Assembly: GCA_964360125.1 (NCBI GenBank)
Contig: CAYHXK010000001.1
Span: forward strand, 5,921 to 37,313
Reading direction: 5' to 3'
From: an uncultured Sterolibacterium sp.
Lineage (GTDB): Bacteria; Pseudomonadota; Gammaproteobacteria; Burkholderiales; Rhodocyclaceae
Length of the DNA stretch: 31,393 bases
The translations under genes were made by a program, and so were the position numbers. The notes under the pieces are model-generated. The model ran no database searches, was not told the origin of the DNA, and saw nothing but the letters and a program-made list of their open reading frames with translations. Shown one piece after another: positions 1 to 6,052 of the stretch; position 1 is the stretch's first letter, and every line of letters starts with the position of its first letter.

Positions 1-300
1 CCCAGGATCCAGGTGGATTTCCTCCCCCCCCTGCCTGATCTCACACCACCCCTTGAGCTGCAGCTGTACGATAAACCGGTGATCGGCCGAGGCGCGCTTG
101 CGTTCTACCGTATGCGGTGTTCCGCCGGTTTCCCTGAGGAGAACAGTGCCGATCGCGTACTGGGTCAAGCTGGCCTGAAACGAGAGTTCGTGGTACGGAT
201 CGCAACACGCCTGCAAACCGAAATGCTTCAGCATTGCTTCGCGCCAATAGGGAAAGCGCTCAGGCGGGGGGAGCGGGTCGGTGTCGAGTACGAGGTTCAC
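1..300 (-). CDS. AraC-family transcriptional regulator, N-terminal ligand-binding domain (partial; runs off the window edge)
   Basis: Manual translation of the minus strand from GTG 300: VNLVLDTDPLPPPERFPYWREAMLKHFG...FIVQLQLKGWCEIRQGGEEIHLDPG. This resembles the 'T..P..ERF.YWRE' and 'QgG.e..L.PG' pattern of FeaR-like AraC N-termini. Not in the ORF track because the frame is open at the edge. Confidence 0.75.
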   Translation of the reverse strand, partial: MNLVLDTDPLPPPERFPYWREAMLKHFGLQACCDPYHELSFQASLTQYAIGTVLLRETGGTPHTVERKRASADHRFIVQLQLKGWCEIRQGGEEIHLDPG

Positions 301-432: not shown

Positions 433-1614
433 TCATGACTGGGCGGTCTTGGCATCATCCCAAGGCGGAAACAACCGGACTGCCACCGTCAGCAGCACAA
501 AGGGCGCCATCAGCAGCAGCGCAGCGGTCAGGCCACCCTCCCTCTCGATGAAGGGCATGTGGTAGGTGAGCAATCCCTTGCCGGTCTTGGCGATTTCCTG
601 TCCGCCGATGACCACGTTCCAGCGCATCATCAGCACCCCGACGAGCACCAGGAAGGCGCTCATGACGGTTCCCGCGATCAGCGCATTTCCCTTGGTGCCC
701 CGCCAAATCATGAAGGTCAACAGGAGCACCGGCACTACCGAGCAGATGCCTATCTGGACGATCCAGAATGGAACAATGAGCGGGCCTCTGACGTATTCCA
801 TGATCACTTCTATCCCCTCCCGGCCCCTGTAGACAAGGCTGGCGAATTCCACCGCCTCCAGCAACAGGGCAAACAGCATGAAGCCCCACAGCGAATAGGT
901 CATGCCCTTCAGACATTCCAAGTCGACCGCGATCTTGCGCAGCCTGCAGGACAGGACATAGAGGACGATCAACAGCGCAATGCCGGAGATGATCGCGGAA
1001 AACAGGAAGATCGGCGGCATGAGGTCGGAGGACCACCATTCCCTGGATTTCAGCGAACCGAAGACGAACCCGACGTAGCCGTGCAAGCCGTGAGCGCCGG
1101 GGATGCCGATCGCGGCCAAGGCGAAGATCCACTTCCGGTCATAGTGCATCGCCTTTTCGGAAACATCGTAGGACCCGAGCGTCAGGATACGATAAAACCA
1201 GCCCGGTAGCCCTTGCCTTTGCTGTGCCTGCTCGACGATGTAAGGGCGAAACACGAACCAGTTTTCCAGCAGCAGGAGAATCAGGTAGAAAGCCGCGACA
1301 TAACCGAAGACGGCGAAGGCCGAGGTGGTGTGCGGCGTGATCATGGGATTCAATGCCCGCTCCGGATGGCCGAGGTGCAGCAGCAAGGGCAGCGGCACGA
1401 TGAGCATGCAGCAAAGAGAGGTGAGCATGGCGAAGTGCGCGACGGGCTTGAAGCGCTCCATGCCGAAGACCTGGTAGAGACTGGACATGGTGAAGGCGCC
1501 GGCCACCAACCCGGTCAAATAAGGATAGACGACGATCAGCACGGTCCAGGGGATGATCGTCTCATTGGGATAGACGTAGCCGGTGAACGGCGCGACGTGA
1601 TAGAGCGCTTCCAC
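433..1614 (-). CDS. NrfD/PsrC-family polytopic membrane quinol-interacting subunit
   Basis: GTG at 1614 overlaps the upstream TAG and follows an AAGGAGGTG SD. Motifs 'PNETIIPWTVLIVVYPYLTGLVAGAF', 'LLHLGHPER' and 'WWSS.LMPPIFLFSAI.SG'; about 8-10 hydrophobic segments; 393 aa. Confidence 0.9.
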   Translation of the reverse strand: MEALYHVAPFTGYVYPNETIIPWTVLIVVYPYLTGLVAGAFTMSSLYQVFGMERFKPVAHFAMLTSLCCMLIVPLPLLLHLGHPERALNPMITPHTTSAFAVFGYVAAFYLILLLLENWFVFRPYIVEQAQQRQGLPGWFYRILTLGSYDVSEKAMHYDRKWIFALAAIGIPGAHGLHGYVGFVFGSLKSREWWSSDLMPPIFLFSAIISGIALLIVLYVLSCRLRKIAVDLECLKGMTYSLWGFMLFALLLEAVEFASLVYRGREGIEVIMEYVRGPLIVPFWIVQIGICSVVPVLLLTFMIWRGTKGNALIAGTVMSAFLVLVGVLMMRWNVVIGGQEIAKTGKGLLTYHMPFIEREGGLTAALLLMAPFVLLTVAVRLFPPWDDAKTAQS

Positions 1615-2450
1615 TAGCTCACCTCCTTGTCGATGCCGACATAGAACACATTCGGCGCATTGCCGGATTCGGGCTTGAGGACGGTCACCCGGTTGTTGCG
1701 CAGGAACAGGCTGATCGGACTTTGCTTGTCGTTGCGATCGCCGAAGACACGCGCACTCACCGGACAAACCTCGACGCAGGCAGGCTGCAGGCCCTTGGTG
1801 ATGCGGTGATAACACCAGGTGCACTTGTCCGTGGCGCCGGTTTCCTCGTTGAAAAAACGGGCGCCGTAGGGGCAAGCCTGGACGCAGTACTGGCAGCCGA
1901 TGCAATAAGTGTGGTCGATGACGACCACGCCGTCTTTGGTCTTGTAGGTCGCTCCGGTCGGACACACTTGCACGCAGGCCGGATGGGTGCAGTGATTGCA
2001 AAGCTTGGGCACGAAGAATGCCTTTTCCACCTTGGCATCCTTGTAGCGATTGGCGAATCGATACTTTCCCTCCGCGCCCGAGGCCTCGATGTTGACTGGA
2101 TCGTGCTGGCTGTCGATGCGCGCCTTATCCTCTCCCTCCAAAGTGACGTAGCGCTCTACCCAGGTGCGGAAGTGACTGGCGTCTATGGGGACGTTGTTTT
2201 CCACCTTGCAGGCCTCGACGCAACGCAGGCAGCCGATGCACTTCGTGGCATCGACGCCAAAGGCCCAACGATGCTTGCTCCAGTCATACCCCGGAATGTC
2301 CGGTTTGGACGGGGCGTCGACGGCGGCGGCTTCGGGCAGGAGGGCATTGGCCGCGATCGCCACGCCGCCGCCGATGGCGCCGCCGAAGAGGCGCAGGAAG
2401 TTCCTGCGCCCTGCTTCTTCAAGCTTCTCGACCTCATCTTTGTTTTCCAT
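1614..2450 (-). CDS. NrfC/DsrO/TtrB-type 4x[4Fe-4S] protein with Tat signal
   Basis: Start ATG 2450. RRNFLR twin-arginine motif; CIGCLRCVEAC, CNHCTHPACVQVCP, CIGCQYCVQACP and KCTWC...PACVEVCP. Confidence 0.92.
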   Translation of the reverse strand: MENKDEVEKLEEAGRRNFLRLFGGAIGGGVAIAANALLPEAAAVDAPSKPDIPGYDWSKHRWAFGVDATKCIGCLRCVEACKVENNVPIDASHFRTWVERYVTLEGEDKARIDSQHDPVNIEASGAEGKYRFANRYKDAKVEKAFFVPKLCNHCTHPACVQVCPTGATYKTKDGVVVIDHTYCIGCQYCVQACPYGARFFNEETGATDKCTWCYHRITKGLQPACVEVCPVSARVFGDRNDKQSPISLFLRNNRVTVLKPESGNAPNVFYVGIDKEVS

Positions 2451-2485
2451 ATTTTTCCCCGTAAGGCTCTGTTTTTTTACCTGTC

Positions 2486-3520
2486 TCACCTGCAAGCGGC
2501 ATTGGCGTAATAGGCCGCCAAGGCTGCCGCATCGGCATCGTTGAGATCTTTGGCAATCTTGCTCATCAAGCCGTTCTTGCGTCCGGCCTTGTAGGATTTC
2601 ATGGCGCTCGCTAGATAGTCCTTGGATTGTCCGGCCAGGTTTGGCCACATGGCCTGTCCGCTGATTCCGTTCGCGCCGTGGCAGGAGGCGCATTTCGAGG
2701 CAAGCACTTGACCTCTGGCGGCGGCCTTGGTCTCCCCATTCCGAGCGCTCTTGCATTGCAGACCGGCATAATAGGCAGCGAGATTTTCGGCAGCGGTATC
2801 GCTCAAGTCCTTGGCCATGCCGGTCATCATGGGGTCCTCCCGCAAACCTCGCCTGTATGCCATGATGGCATTGGCGAGATAGGCCTCATTCTGGCCGGCA
2901 AGGCTTGGTATGGTGGGGATTTCGCTGACCCCCGACTTTCCGTGGCAAGCTGCGCAATTGCCAGCAATTGCTTTTCCGGCCGCCGCATTGCCTGGCTGGG
3001 AAGTCGACGCCAAGGCCCAGACGAAAATCCTGGGCGAGTGGACATTGTGGCAAGCTTTGCATTGCTGGTCTTCGGCGTGCGTGGCGACCACGATTTGTTT
3101 TTGCTCAAGCGGCCGCCCAGGCATCTGCTCGTGGCAGAGGGTGCACAGTTTTACGGTATCGCTTGGGTTCTCGAGCTTCAGCTGGTTCGTGTGATCCGCG
3201 CCGGTAGCAGAGATATCGGAGAGGGGGGTTTCATCCCGACTGCCCGCAACGCCGTGACAGACTTCGCATTTGACGACTTTCCCCAGGGCAGGGCTGTTGT
3301 GTACGCCCTTGGACCATTCCGCGTATTTCTCGGCATGGCACTGCTTGCAGGCTTCCGGGGTCCGGAATTTCGGCTGGTCTGAGGCGATTTCCGTCACCGA
3401 GTTGCCTCGATAGTGCCCATAGCGGTAAAAGGAGTCGACGGTCAGGAATTGTTTTCCCGCATACCCGAGCACGCCGAGGACCACGATGAGGAGAACGAGC
3501 CGAACAATATGTTTTGGCAT
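2486..3520 (-). CDS. Membrane-anchored hexahaem c-type cytochrome (tetrahaem domain plus two class I c553/c4-like domains)
   Basis: N-terminal hydrophobic helix; six CxxCH motifs (CKQCH, CEVCH, CTLCH, CKACH, CAACH, CASCH). The last two sit in 'P.LAGQ...YL...M..' class I domains. Confidence 0.88.
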   Translation of the reverse strand: MPKHIVRLVLLIVVLGVLGYAGKQFLTVDSFYRYGHYRGNSVTEIASDQPKFRTPEACKQCHAEKYAEWSKGVHNSPALGKVVKCEVCHGVAGSRDETPLSDISATGADHTNQLKLENPSDTVKLCTLCHEQMPGRPLEQKQIVVATHAEDQQCKACHNVHSPRIFVWALASTSQPGNAAAGKAIAGNCAACHGKSGVSEIPTIPSLAGQNEAYLANAIMAYRRGLREDPMMTGMAKDLSDTAAENLAAYYAGLQCKSARNGETKAAARGQVLASKCASCHGANGISGQAMWPNLAGQSKDYLASAMKSYKAGRKNGLMSKIAKDLNDADAAALAAYYANAACR

Positions 3521-3591
3521 GATTTCTTGATCAGTGGACGTTCGAGTGCAACGGCCCTGGATCCGATACGCGTGCCTCGTACCGACTCAGG

Positions 3592-4227
3592 TTATTTCGC
3601 TGCGGTGGCGCCCTGGTTGAACATGTAAACAACCGCATCGCGCATCTCGGCGTCGGTGAGATCGGCCATGCCGCCGCGCGCAGGCATTCCTCCATGTCCA
3701 TTGATGGCGGAACGGACCAGGGCATCCATTCCATTCGCGCCGCGCGGTAGCCAGGCAGTCCGATCGCCGATCTTTGGGGCGCCGTGCAGTCCGGTTTGGT
3801 GGCACTTGACGCATTGCGCCCGGACAATGTCTTTACCGGGGCGATCGGCAGTCTTGCTTGCCTTGTTGGTGGGCTCGGTCCAGTGGCCGCCAGACTGGTT
3901 GACCATGTAGGTAATGGCGCGCTGGATTTCGAAATCGCTGACGTCCGGATTGCCTCCATGCGCCGGCATCTTCCGGATGCCCTTCAAGGCGGTTTGCGTG
4001 AGGCTACCGAGACCCCGCGAAGCGCGCTTGCTCCATGCCTGCTTGTCGCCGATTTTTGGCGCACCATCGGCGCCGGTTGCGTGGCATGCGGAGCACACGG
4101 CTTCCGCCACTTCCTTGCCGTTGCGTTCGCCGCTCTTGGCCCGCGCCGCCTCCGGGATGATGAGCATCGCGAAAGCAAGGGCGATGGTTGTTATGATCAG
4201 TTGCTTCGGCGCCTTGATAGAGTTCAT
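3592..4227 (-). CDS. Dihaem cytochrome c5-type protein
   Basis: Signal peptide; CSACH and CVKCH, each followed by 'GAPKIGD..AW..R' and 'MPA.GG' c5 motifs. Confidence 0.88.
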   Translation of the reverse strand: MNSIKAPKQLIITTIALAFAMLIIPEAARAKSGERNGKEVAEAVCSACHATGADGAPKIGDKQAWSKRASRGLGSLTQTALKGIRKMPAHGGNPDVSDFEIQRAITYMVNQSGGHWTEPTNKASKTADRPGKDIVRAQCVKCHQTGLHGAPKIGDRTAWLPRGANGMDALVRSAINGHGGMPARGGMADLTDAEMRDAVVYMFNQGATAAK

Positions 4228-4308
4228 GACTGTCCCACCGTTGTCGAGGGTGAACTGCCAATTTTGTTCTTAGCCGCAGGAATGCGATCACCCGAGCGCA
4301 TATTGAGG

Positions 4309-4842
4309 TCATTGACCGGGTCGCGATTTGATCTCGATCAAATATCTCATTAGCTCCCGATACTGGCCGCCCTGAAACAGCAGCGGCGCTCGTTCCTCAC
4401 GCAAGTATTTCTCCACCAGGCCGACGAATATCAGGTGGTCGCCGCCGGCATGACGCGTCTCGTTGCGACATTCGAAGCGCGCGCAACAGCCTTGCAGAAG
4501 TGGGGCGCCGCCGCTGCCCGTGTCGAATTTCAGGGCGGCGAACTTGTTCTCGGATTTTTCCTTGGAGGGTCTGGCGAAATGCTCCGACAACTCGACTTGG
4601 TCAGCCGCCAGCACATTGATCGCATAGTGGCTGCAGTGCTGGAATACCGCCAGGGCCGGCGAGTAGAGCGACAGACTCCACAGCACCAGCGGCGGGGCTA
4701 GCGATACCGATGCGAAGGAGTTGACCGTCAAGCCCACCAGTTCGCCGCCGACGCCGCGCGCGGTAATCACGGTGACGCCGGTGGCAAAGCTGCCCAGAGC
4801 GGTGCGGAAAGCCCGCGTGTCGAATTCATTCTCAGCGTTCAT
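4309..4842 (-). CDS. Flavin reductase (HpaC/HsaB/RutF-like)
   Basis: Start ATG 4842. 'FRTALGSFATGVTVIT', 'GLTVNSFASVSL.PPLVLWS' and 'GGDHLIFVG.V' motifs; overlaps the monooxygenase stop by 11 nt. Confidence 0.92.
   Translation of the reverse strand: MNAENEFDTRAFRTALGSFATGVTVITARGVGGELVGLTVNSFASVSLAPPLVLWSLSLYSPALAVFQHCSHYAINVLAADQVELSEHFARPSKEKSENKFAALKFDTGSGGAPLLQGCCARFECRNETRHAGGDHLIFVGLVEKYLREERAPLLFQGGQYRELMRYLIEIKSRPGQ
4328..4341. promoter_or_regulatory. FNR/ANR/DNR box
   Basis: TTGAT-CTCG-ATCAA is a perfect FNR consensus about 100 bp upstream of the c5 ATG. A possible -10 (CAATAT, 4305-4300, minus strand) lies at class II spacing. Confidence 0.8.
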
Positions 4843-6052
4843 AGGGCGGCAAGTCGGCGCCGTGGCCCAGGGCAACGCGACCATAGATCGCGGCGGCGAC
4901 ATCCCAGTTGAGGGCGATGTGCGAACAGGCGGCGCGGATGTCGCGCAAGGCGCGTTGCGCCGGATGGGCGAGGAATAGCGCTGCGCCGCCGGAAGCGTCG
5001 AACAATAGATCGACGGCGCGGCGGCCGAGTTGTGCGGCAAACGCGGCATCGCGACGCAGACGGGCTTTTTCCAGCAGCGCCGGCGCTTCCGCGCGCGCGG
5101 CGTCGGCCATGATGTCGGCGCAGTTGCCGAGCAACAGGCGCCGCGCCGCATCGATGCTGGCCGCAGCCTCGGCAACCCGCGCCTGCACCGCGTGGAAATC
5201 CGTCAGCATGCGGCCTGAGTAGGAAGTCAGGCGGTCGCGGTCGTCGCCGGTAAACAGATCCAGGGCGCCCTGGGCAATACCCAGTGCTACGCCGGCAACC
5301 ACATAACCGAAAGCCGGCAGCAGCGGGATGCGGTAGAGCGGCCCCGGATTGACCTGCGAGCCCGGCGTAATGCCTCCTTGCAGCGCCGCCAGCGGCAGGC
5401 TGCGATGCGCCGCCACAAACACTCCGGCGACACTCACTTCATTGCTGCCGGTGCCGCACAGACCGGCCGCATACCAGGTGTCGCGCACCGAGTAATCGCC
5501 TTTGGGTAACAGGAACATGCGGTACTCTCCGGGAATAGCGGCGAAGGCATCGAGGTCGTGCTGCCGACTATCCTCGCCTCCCTCGCCGACGATGGCGCCC
5601 AGCATCACCCAGGCACAGTCGTCGATACCGCTGGCGAAAGTCCAGCGACCGCTCAACCGATAGCCGCCTTCACAAGCCTGGGCGCGACCGGCGGGGAAAA
5701 TCAAGGAAGCACAGATCAAGGCAGCGGCGGTTTCCCCGCTGGCTCCCCACACCTCGTCCTGCGCCGCCTGCGGCCACATGCCGAGCATCCAGTGATGGCT
5801 GGCGAGATTGGCCAGCACCCAGGCGCTGGCGGCGCAGCCGCGCGCCAGCTCGGCGGAGACCTCGACCAGCGCGGCAATATCCAGCTCGGCGCCGCCGACC
5901 CGCGCCGGCTGCAACAGGCGGAACAAGCCGGCGCCATGCAACTCGTCGAAGGTCGTCGCGGAGACGCGCCGGGCGGCCTCGGTTGCCAGCGCGCGCTGCG
6001 CCAGCGCCGGTCGCAACGCGGCGGCACGCGCCAAAGCTTCGGCAGGATTCAT
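4832..6052 (-). CDS. Acyl-CoA-dehydrogenase-fold flavin-dependent monooxygenase (group D, HsaA/C2-like)
   Basis: 'LFRLLQP.RVGG', 'GRWTFASG', 'W...GL.GTGSN.V' and 'RDI.AAC.HIA' motifs; coupled to a flavin reductase. Start ATG 6052 (TTG 6064 is an alternative). Confidence 0.85.
   Translation of the reverse strand: MNPAEALARAAALRPALAQRALATEAARRVSATTFDELHGAGLFRLLQPARVGGAELDIAALVEVSAELARGCAASAWVLANLASHHWMLGMWPQAAQDEVWGASGETAAALICASLIFPAGRAQACEGGYRLSGRWTFASGIDDCAWVMLGAIVGEGGEDSRQHDLDAFAAIPGEYRMFLLPKGDYSVRDTWYAAGLCGTGSNEVSVAGVFVAAHRSLPLAALQGGITPGSQVNPGPLYRIPLLPAFGYVVAGVALGIAQGALDLFTGDDRDRLTSYSGRMLTDFHAVQARVAEAAASIDAARRLLLGNCADIMADAARAEAPALLEKARLRRDAAFAAQLGRRAVDLLFDASGGAALFLAHPAQRALRDIRAACSHIALNWDVAAAIYGRVALGHGADLPPYER

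Follow-up and report, generated by a model that had tools for sequence, protein, structure and literature searches.

A conserved hexahaem cytochrome, iron-sulfur, and NrfD-family gene trio with an FNR-type box beside Mtr genes in an uncultured Sterolibacterium

Four redox genes behind an FNR-type box

The DNA analyzed here (the window) is a 31-kb stretch from an uncultured Sterolibacterium sp., positions 5921 to 37313 of a 37.3-kb contig, and the system in question is a set of four redox genes on its minus strand. The first gene, g1 (positions 3592 to 4227), is predicted to encode a periplasmic dihaem class I cytochrome c of 211 amino acids with a Sec signal and two CxxCH motifs (PF13442, 98.5 bits over two domains). 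The second, g2 (2486 to 3520), encodes a membrane-anchored hexahaem cytochrome of 344 amino acids with a transmembrane helix at residues 3 to 26 and six CxxCH motifs. It is followed by g3 (1614 to 2450), which encodes a ferredoxin-like iron-sulfur (FeS) protein of 278 amino acids with 16 cysteines in four [4Fe-4S] cluster motifs (PF13247, 99.4 bits) and the twin-arginine motif RRNFL of proteins exported by twin-arginine translocation (Tat). The last gene, g4 (433 to 1614), encodes an NrfD-family integral membrane subunit of 393 amino acids (Pfam NrfD, 142 bits), which presumably carries a quinone site. The intergenic gaps are 71, 35, and −1 nucleotides (nt), as the GTG start codon of g4 shares bases with the g3 stop codon in a TAGTG overlap, and a terminator search inside the four-gene set found no convincing candidate. 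A first-pass annotation of this DNA had described four co-oriented genes with this overlap and a perfect FNR box, all of which we confirmed from the sequence.

Neither the window nor the remaining contig has a molybdopterin, NrfA, or hydrogenase gene next to the operon. The set is a cytochrome/FeS/NrfD module free of a catalytic subunit, and the cytochromes encoded here contain no CxxCK motif, the signature of a substrate-binding haem. The products of g2, g3, and g4 (the trio) would form a complex; in a complex prediction with the NrfD subunit, the FeS protein, and residues 1 to 180 of the hexahaem cytochrome, the control with replaced chain 1 came within the required margin, and the prediction counts neither way. 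Groundwater and aquifer metagenomes from seven studies contain this stretch. In two aquifer RNA runs, contigs cover 14 kb about evenly (29 of 30 bins), housekeeping genes and regulators included, and this coverage, even with the surroundings, therefore gives no evidence of specific expression or cotranscription. No RNA contig spans any gene junction by at least 31 nt.

An FNR/CRP-family palindrome of the form TTGAT-N4-ATCAA, TTGATCTCGATCAA, lies at positions 4328 to 4341, 100 nt before the ATG of g1 and with its centre 107.5 nt upstream. It is the sole match in the window at up to one mismatch (0.38 matches expected in 31 kb). The box sits within the last eleven codons (4309 to 4341) of an upstream flavin-reductase-like open reading frame (ORF), and the same bases therefore serve both as regulatory site and as coding sequence. 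A promoter scan found no sigma-70 consensus promoter. A candidate −10 hexamer, CAATAT (4300 to 4305, minus strand), can be proposed from the sequence, matching at three of six positions, including A2 and T6; if it is used, the box would be centred at about −41.5, the geometry of class II FNR promoters, with a predicted transcript 5′ end near position 4293.

Conservation of the trio and fold of its membrane subunit

A homology search with g4 returned thousands of relatives, the best 120 at 74 to 100% identity, and a genome scan gave 575 confirmed loci, 80 of which are covered by the locus counts below. The carrier loci belong to Beta-, Alpha-, and Gammaproteobacteria, mostly as metagenome-assembled genomes (MAGs) from groundwater, peat, lakes, and soil, and the nearest relatives are Sterolibacterium MAGs at 83 to 86% identity. 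Checking the conservation of the neighbourhood, as the first-pass annotation had proposed, we found the hexahaem-FeS-NrfD order retained in about 76 of 80 loci, with the hexahaem gene immediately ahead of the FeS gene and the FeS gene directly before or overlapping the NrfD gene. NrfD identity among the loci is 64 to 86%, and the mean column identity of the homologues is 77%. The dihaem gene g1 adjoins the trio only in the closest (Sterolibacterium-like) relatives, and a dihaem cytochrome of the g1 cluster is present somewhere in 34 of the 80 loci. The trio was found in none of nine other genomes of the host's family, which suggests horizontal spread.

The cofactor ligands are conserved throughout. 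All six CxxCH motifs of the hexahaem cytochrome are invariant in 32 aligned homologues, as are H74, H110, H148, H161, M232, and M319, and the pattern is consistent with four bis-His haems and then two His-Met haems. The first four haems lie in a c3/c7/NrfB-like part and the last two in a C-terminal cytochrome c4-like part, which matches 6q2u_A with 121 bits in a profile search; against the PdsA model, the protein scores 68.8 bits, under the cut-off of 330. In profile searches, the tetrahaem part gave weak generic multihaem matches only (MccA, 30 bits; NrfB, E value of 0.004), and its predicted local distance difference test (pLDDT) score in the AlphaFold2 model is below 50 across residues 30 to 171, too low for a fold comparison with ActA, NrfB, or NapC. 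The 16 cluster cysteines of the FeS protein are likewise invariant among homologues. Its closest solved sequence is PsrB (2vpw_B, 160 bits), with ArrB also near; against curated models, it scores 203.2 bits for DsrO (cut-off 200, nominally reached), 216 for TtrB (416), 149 for ArrB (450), 150.3 for NrfC (377.6), and 91 for QrcC (400).

Clustering of the NrfD subunit with a characterized complex, which would have counted against the first-pass annotation, was not seen with curated models, where it scores below every family cut-off (NrfD, 48.1 of 347.6 bits; DsrP, 45.6 of 350; HmcC, 27 of 550), and neither single-sequence nor profile searches against solved structures gave a sequence-level match. 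Its AlphaFold2 model (mean pLDDT of 79.5) was informative. In an all-against-representatives alignment, it superimposed on ActC of alternative complex III (ACIII; 8k9e_C) with a Z score of 32.0 and a root mean square deviation of 3.4 Å over 359 residues, compared with Z scores of 26 to 27 for ActF and 17.5 for PsrC. Foldseek returned four ACIII structures, with template modelling (TM) scores of 0.72 to 0.75 for ActC, which was thus ranked first by both aligners, at a sequence identity of just 16 to 18%. As modelled, g4 is an ActC-like ten-helix protein and not a PsrC-like one, and the likeness to ACIII that had been suspected from the sequence holds at the level of the fold.

The box is conserved along with the genes. 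Two Sterolibacterium MAG loci (L002 and L004) have the identical box, equally far upstream of the dihaem gene, and 32 of 59 loci have FNR-like boxes (at most one mismatch) in the 350 bp preceding the hexahaem gene. Their density there is 1.65 per kb, versus 0.08 per kb across the rest of the loci and 0.42 per kb in intergenic sequence elsewhere. The host genome encodes two regulators with the cysteine spacing of Escherichia coli FNR and three further CRP/FNR-family members without those cysteines, so that either oxygen or signals of denitrification may act through the box. The FNR-type pair (L084:1000-1746 on contig C73 and L086:1471-2232 on contig C78) has an N-terminal Cys-x2-Cys-x5-Cys motif and a distal cysteine, and in one of the two the cysteines stand at the exact E. 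coli FNR positions 20, 23, 29, and 122. Anaerobic control, which the first-pass annotation had also proposed, is plausible from these data and appears to be phylogenetically conserved. A Burkholderiales subset of loci (L049:3008-6146 and about 12 others) lacks an FNR-like box and has, upstream of the trio, a rhodanese-domain gene and a divergent pair of HisKA_3 kinase and NarL-type response regulator genes, which suggests a different, possibly sulfur-related, regulatory input.

Mtr genes and the probable role of the complex

To the left of the window, on the strand of the operon and 2 kb past the window edge, the contig carries the genes cytochrome c-mtrA-mtrB-mtrC (contig positions 2 to 4289, L081). 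They encode a monohaem class I cytochrome c, an MtrA/DmsE-family decahaem cytochrome with ten CxxCH motifs (TIGR03508, 288 bits; cut-off 192), an MtrB/PioB porin (TIGR03509, 403 bits; cut-off 240), and an MtrC/OmcA-family surface cytochrome of which only the N-terminal domain is present before the contig ends. Two genes lie between the trio and the mtr genes: one for an AraC-family regulator of 326 amino acids (PF12833 and PF14525), whose 5′ part occupies window positions 1 to 300 on the minus strand and which runs off the window, and a second, shorter AraC-type ORF. In public groundwater data, DNA contigs of separate studies run from NrfD to AraC and from MtrB via MtrA to cytochrome c, the NrfD-to-AraC join being seen in DNA contigs of two different studies, and the linkage of the trio to the mtr genes is therefore not a binning artefact. 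A search upstream of the cytochrome c-mtrA genes gave no FNR box, and these genes are therefore regulated separately from the operon. Within the AraC-type gene just left of the window (L083:5884-5911), two DNA runs from different studies show a cluster of indels (+1, −1, +1, and −10 nt) as well as substitutions when compared with the assembly, reflecting either strain variation or an assembly error.

Similar companions recur elsewhere. An MtrB/PioB porin gene, detected with a hidden Markov model built from MtrB genes, lies within 8 kb of the trio in 12 of the 80 loci, and MtrA-type decahaem genes are neighbours in 15. When 93 distinct neighbour gene groups were classified by Pfam, MtrB_PioB ranked first (7 groups), followed by MtrC-like and multihaem families, and no molybdopterin, NrfA, hydrogenase, cd1, or NosZ family was recurrent among these groups. 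The recurrent companions across the 80 loci are all electron carriers: a c4-type tetrahaem cytochrome, a PF27139 protein, a CbcL-like nonahaem/cytochrome b fusion (34 loci), small mono- and dihaem cytochromes, and the MtrA-type decahaems. The tetrahaem cytochrome (about 410 amino acids) and the PF27139 protein (Aq_1264_TM, function unknown; a four-helix membrane protein of 263 amino acids with one CxxCH motif) occur in 50 of the 80 loci (e.g., L004:9353-11511), and tblastn found neither in the window's own genome. In loci L006 to L008 and L018, the trio stands directly behind MtoA/MtoB-type genes and no MtrC gene is present. In L011, L039, L052, and L064, which have no separate MtrA/MtrB pair, ten-haem proteins of 786 to 898 amino acids follow NrfD and may be another type of outer-membrane or surface cytochrome.

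At the level of whole genomes, we sampled 401 genomes of the order, evenly drawn, of which 11 carry the trio. MtrB/PioB is present in 9 of these 11 and in 47 of the 390 others (odds ratio of 33). The operon had been called stand-alone in the first-pass annotation, wired to an unknown terminal enzyme; with MtrA, MtrB, MtrC, and a monohaem cytochrome c encoded 2 kb downstream and MtrB/PioB as the commonest recurrent neighbour and a companion at genome level, neither part of that description is supported.

The host genome, a 3.0-Mb MAG in 547 contigs (93% complete), contains a single NrfD homologue by tblastn and encodes bc1 cytochrome b and the cd1 nitrite reductase NirS. Neither cbb3 CcoN nor NarG was found above cut-off, which in such a fragmented MAG is no proof of absence. 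A second cytochrome island (L082:3814-9962, contig C75) encodes a ten-haem protein of 658 amino acids, a CbcL-like multihaem/cytochrome b fusion of 684 amino acids that is 62% identical to the trio-adjacent one of the Sterolibacterium MAGs, a monohaem cytochrome c, two trihaem cytochromes, and ccm-like proteins.

Taken together, these data suggest that the trio most likely forms a small cytoplasmic-membrane complex, a minimal relative of ACIII, that connects the quinone pool with periplasmic cytochromes under anoxic conditions. With a bc1 cytochrome b gene present, the complex would not be a bc1 replacement. We consider it probable, with moderate confidence, that the complex is the cytoplasmic-membrane end of an Mtr-type extracellular electron transfer chain. 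An FNR/DNR-type regulator bound at about −41.5 would turn on transcription without oxygen or under denitrifying conditions. The NrfD subunit would bind quinol or quinone, and electrons would pass through the four FeS clusters to the four bis-His haems and then to the His-Met haem pair of the fused c4 domain. The next acceptors would be soluble class I cytochromes, namely, the dihaem protein of g1 and the monohaem cytochrome c encoded beside mtrA, which would most likely pass the electrons on to the conduit of MtrA, MtrB, and MtrC encoded 2 kb downstream. In doing so, the module would take the part played by CymA, NetBCD, or MtoC in other Mtr/Mto pathways. Quinol oxidation feeding outward transfer is only slightly favoured over the reverse direction.

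Several points weigh against an Mtr-linked role. Mtr genes lie within 8 kb in only 12 to 16 of the 80 loci, and two of the trio genomes, 92% and 96% complete, have no MtrB match. Here, with two AraC-type genes in between and no FNR box before the mtr genes, the trio and the mtr cluster are therefore not one transcription unit. The cd1 nitrite reductase is enriched too, being present in 8 of the 11 trio genomes versus 102 of the 390 others (26%; odds ratio of 7.5), and because the sampled genomes are related, the Fisher tests overstate significance. The His-Met haems of c4 domains are usually high-potential and suit denitrification enzymes or the uptake of electrons from Fe(II) better than a low-potential MtrA. 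To our knowledge, there has been no experiment on any member of this family.

Some of these points lead to a second reading, which is possible if doubtful: a denitrification branch uncoupled from Mtr, in which the complex acts as an anaerobic, ACIII-like bypass of bc1 and passes electrons from quinol, by way of the c4 domain and the g1 dihaem protein, to the cd1 nitrite reductase or to nitric oxide or nitrous oxide reductase. The enrichment of NirS, which the host genome also encodes, is consistent with such a branch, as is the regulatory site, since FNR-type boxes are also recognized by DNR/NNR-type regulators and three CRP/FNR-family members without the FNR cysteines are available in the host. 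The c4 domain with its invariant methionine ligands also resembles electron donors to terminal oxidases and reductases (cytochrome c4 in 6q2u/8smr, solved with cbb3 oxidase). However, nir, nor, and nos genes are not among the recurrent neighbours, whereas Mtr-type genes are; the association with MtrB exceeds that with NirS (odds ratios of 33 and 7.5, respectively); and with bc1 in the host genome, a bypass is not needed.

The closest published counterpart bears on this reading and on the direction of electron flow. In Ferrigenium straubiae KS, three adjacent genes (SU1 to SU3) encode a "novel membrane-bound redox complex" consisting of a hexahaem cytochrome, a 4×[4Fe-4S] protein, and a membrane subunit; they rank with the most highly induced genes when Fe(II) is oxidized with nitrate, and the complex is described there as having no known function (bioRxiv 10.64898/2026.01.22.701106). 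The authors found the membrane subunit to be ACIII/Psr-like by Foldseek and suggested a link to quinone reduction and proton translocation; they call the hexahaem cytochrome "specific to denitrification," in line with a denitrification branch, and offer nitrite as a possible acceptor, a proposal they term "highly speculative" (bioRxiv 10.64898/2026.01.22.701106).

Their induction data and their suggestion of quinone reduction are also what would be expected if the complex ran in reverse, that is, if a nitrate-dependent oxidation of Fe(II) or another extracellular donor fed electrons in through MtrCAB and periplasmic cytochromes and the complex reduced quinone, driven by the proton motive force via its ActC-like subunit. 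We regard this as unlikely. The loci with MtoA/MtoB-type genes directly before the trio and no MtrC gene would fit such a direction, and high-potential His-Met haems would suit electrons derived from Fe(II). Against it, the host genome encodes an MtrC-type surface cytochrome, which is typical of outward transfer, and the trio is also carried by Georgfuchsia (L019), which is known to reduce Fe(III); no feature of the sequence sets the direction. On an equally low estimate, the trio might be the missing cytoplasmic-membrane link of nitrate-dependent Fe(II) oxidation and mineral oxidation, a proton motive force-driven quinone reductase fed via Mtr/Mto conduits and class I cytochromes under anoxia. 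If so, a reversible minimal ACIII would explain how conduits are coupled to respiration in many Beta-, Alpha-, and Gammaproteobacteria that lack CymA.

It is very improbable that g3 and g4 are instead the PsrBC/TtrBC-type electron-carrying and anchoring subunits of a molybdoenzyme with its catalytic subunit encoded at another site, or, in a variant that takes up the nitrite proposal, that the complex itself is a nitrite reductase. The FeS protein is indeed nearest to PsrB and ArrB in sequence and to the TtrB and DsrO models, but almost all loci have the hexahaem cytochrome where a catalytic subunit would stand, molybdopterin families do not recur among neighbouring genes, g4 is modelled with an ActC-like and not a PsrC-like fold, and the CxxCK motif is missing.

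The probable role at the cytoplasmic-membrane end of an Mtr-type chain would matter beyond this genome. Outside Shewanella, Aeromonas, and Vibrio, the connection of Mtr/Mto conduits to the quinone pool is a recognized gap, and the inner-membrane component varies by genus (PMC8805035). The trio is a concrete candidate for that connection in Proteobacteria of groundwater, peat, lakes, and soil, being widespread, conserved, apparently under anaerobic regulation, and tied to MtrB/PioB.

Comparison with known systems

The Psr, Ttr, and Arr complexes have a molybdopterin catalytic subunit, and none is encoded adjacent to the trio; the eight-helix PsrC anchor also fits the g4 model worse than ActC does (Z scores of 17.5 and 32, respectively). 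Similarly, in contrast to NrfABCD, no NrfA-like gene is present on the contig, and g3 and g4 score 150.3 of 377.6 and 48.1 of 347.6 bits against the NrfC and NrfD models. The Cbc-type modules of Geobacter and the Qrc and DsrJOP modules of sulfate reducers resemble the trio in their modular plan of cytochrome c, four-cluster protein, and NrfD-family subunit with no catalytic subunit. They differ in taxa, in haem number, and in the c4 fusion; the scores against the DsrP (46 of 350 bits), QrcC (91 of 400), and HmcC (27 of 550) models are low, the DsrMK and QrcB partners are missing here, and no DsrJ, DsrK, or DsrM gene was found at the locus.

A characterized functional analogue is NetBCD, which together with PdsA forms the quinol dehydrogenase linking the quinone pool to MtrCAB in Aeromonas hydrophila (PMC8805035). 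The two share a layout, with a cytochrome, an NrfC-like and an NrfD-like protein, a c4/PdsA-like dihaem carrier, and mtr genes nearby, and the proposed role between quinone pool and outer-membrane conduit is the same; the likeness is one of layout only. The hexahaem cytochrome has no match to the NetB model at an E value of ≤0.01 (NF049875, an NrfB-like pentahaem) and scores 21 to 25 bits against NrfB models, whereas the MtrA of the contig does match the NetB model weakly. In addition, the PdsA-like dihaem unit is here fused to the membrane cytochrome, and g4 scores far below the NrfD cut-off (48 of 348 bits).

By description, the trio matches the F. straubiae complex in gene order, in its four bis-His and two His-Met haems, in the 4×[4Fe-4S] protein, and in the ACIII/Psr-like membrane subunit, and the induction reported there under anoxic nitrate-reducing conditions fits the conserved FNR-type box described here. 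The architecture is thus already in that preprint, and the trio is not the undescribed system that it had been taken for (bioRxiv 10.64898/2026.01.22.701106; for NetBCD, PMC8805035). Of the initial interpretation, the type of module, its anaerobic control, and the ACIII fold remain, while its isolation, its lack of a recognizable partner, and its novelty do not. The present locus differs in having a dihaem gene ahead of the trio and an mtrABC cluster behind it. The preprint makes no connection between its complex and Mto/Mtr and speculates on nitrite reduction instead, and in the literature we found no account of the trio next to Mtr genes.

ACIII (ActABCDEF; PDB 6BTM, 6F0K, 6LOD, and 8K9E) offers the closest structural comparison. 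Both systems combine an ActC-like ten-helix subunit, a periplasmic FeS subunit, and a transmembrane-anchored multihaem cytochrome, both end in one or more His-Met class I haems, and both have no catalytic metal site besides their electron carriers. The molybdopterin-like ActB1 domain, however, is missing, with g3 aligning solely to residues 681 to 828 of 6btm_B; the second NrfD-like subunit, ActF, is absent (one NrfD gene per locus), as are ActD and ActE; four plus two haems in one chain stand in place of the pentahaem ActA and the monohaem ActE; and all four clusters of g3 have four cysteine ligands. Neither g2 nor g4 gave a sequence-level match to the Act chains. Given the ActC-like fold and the shared plan, the complex resembles ACIII in its membrane subunit and overall layout; it would be the smallest known relative of ACIII and useful for studies of quinone-proton coupling by NrfD-type subunits.

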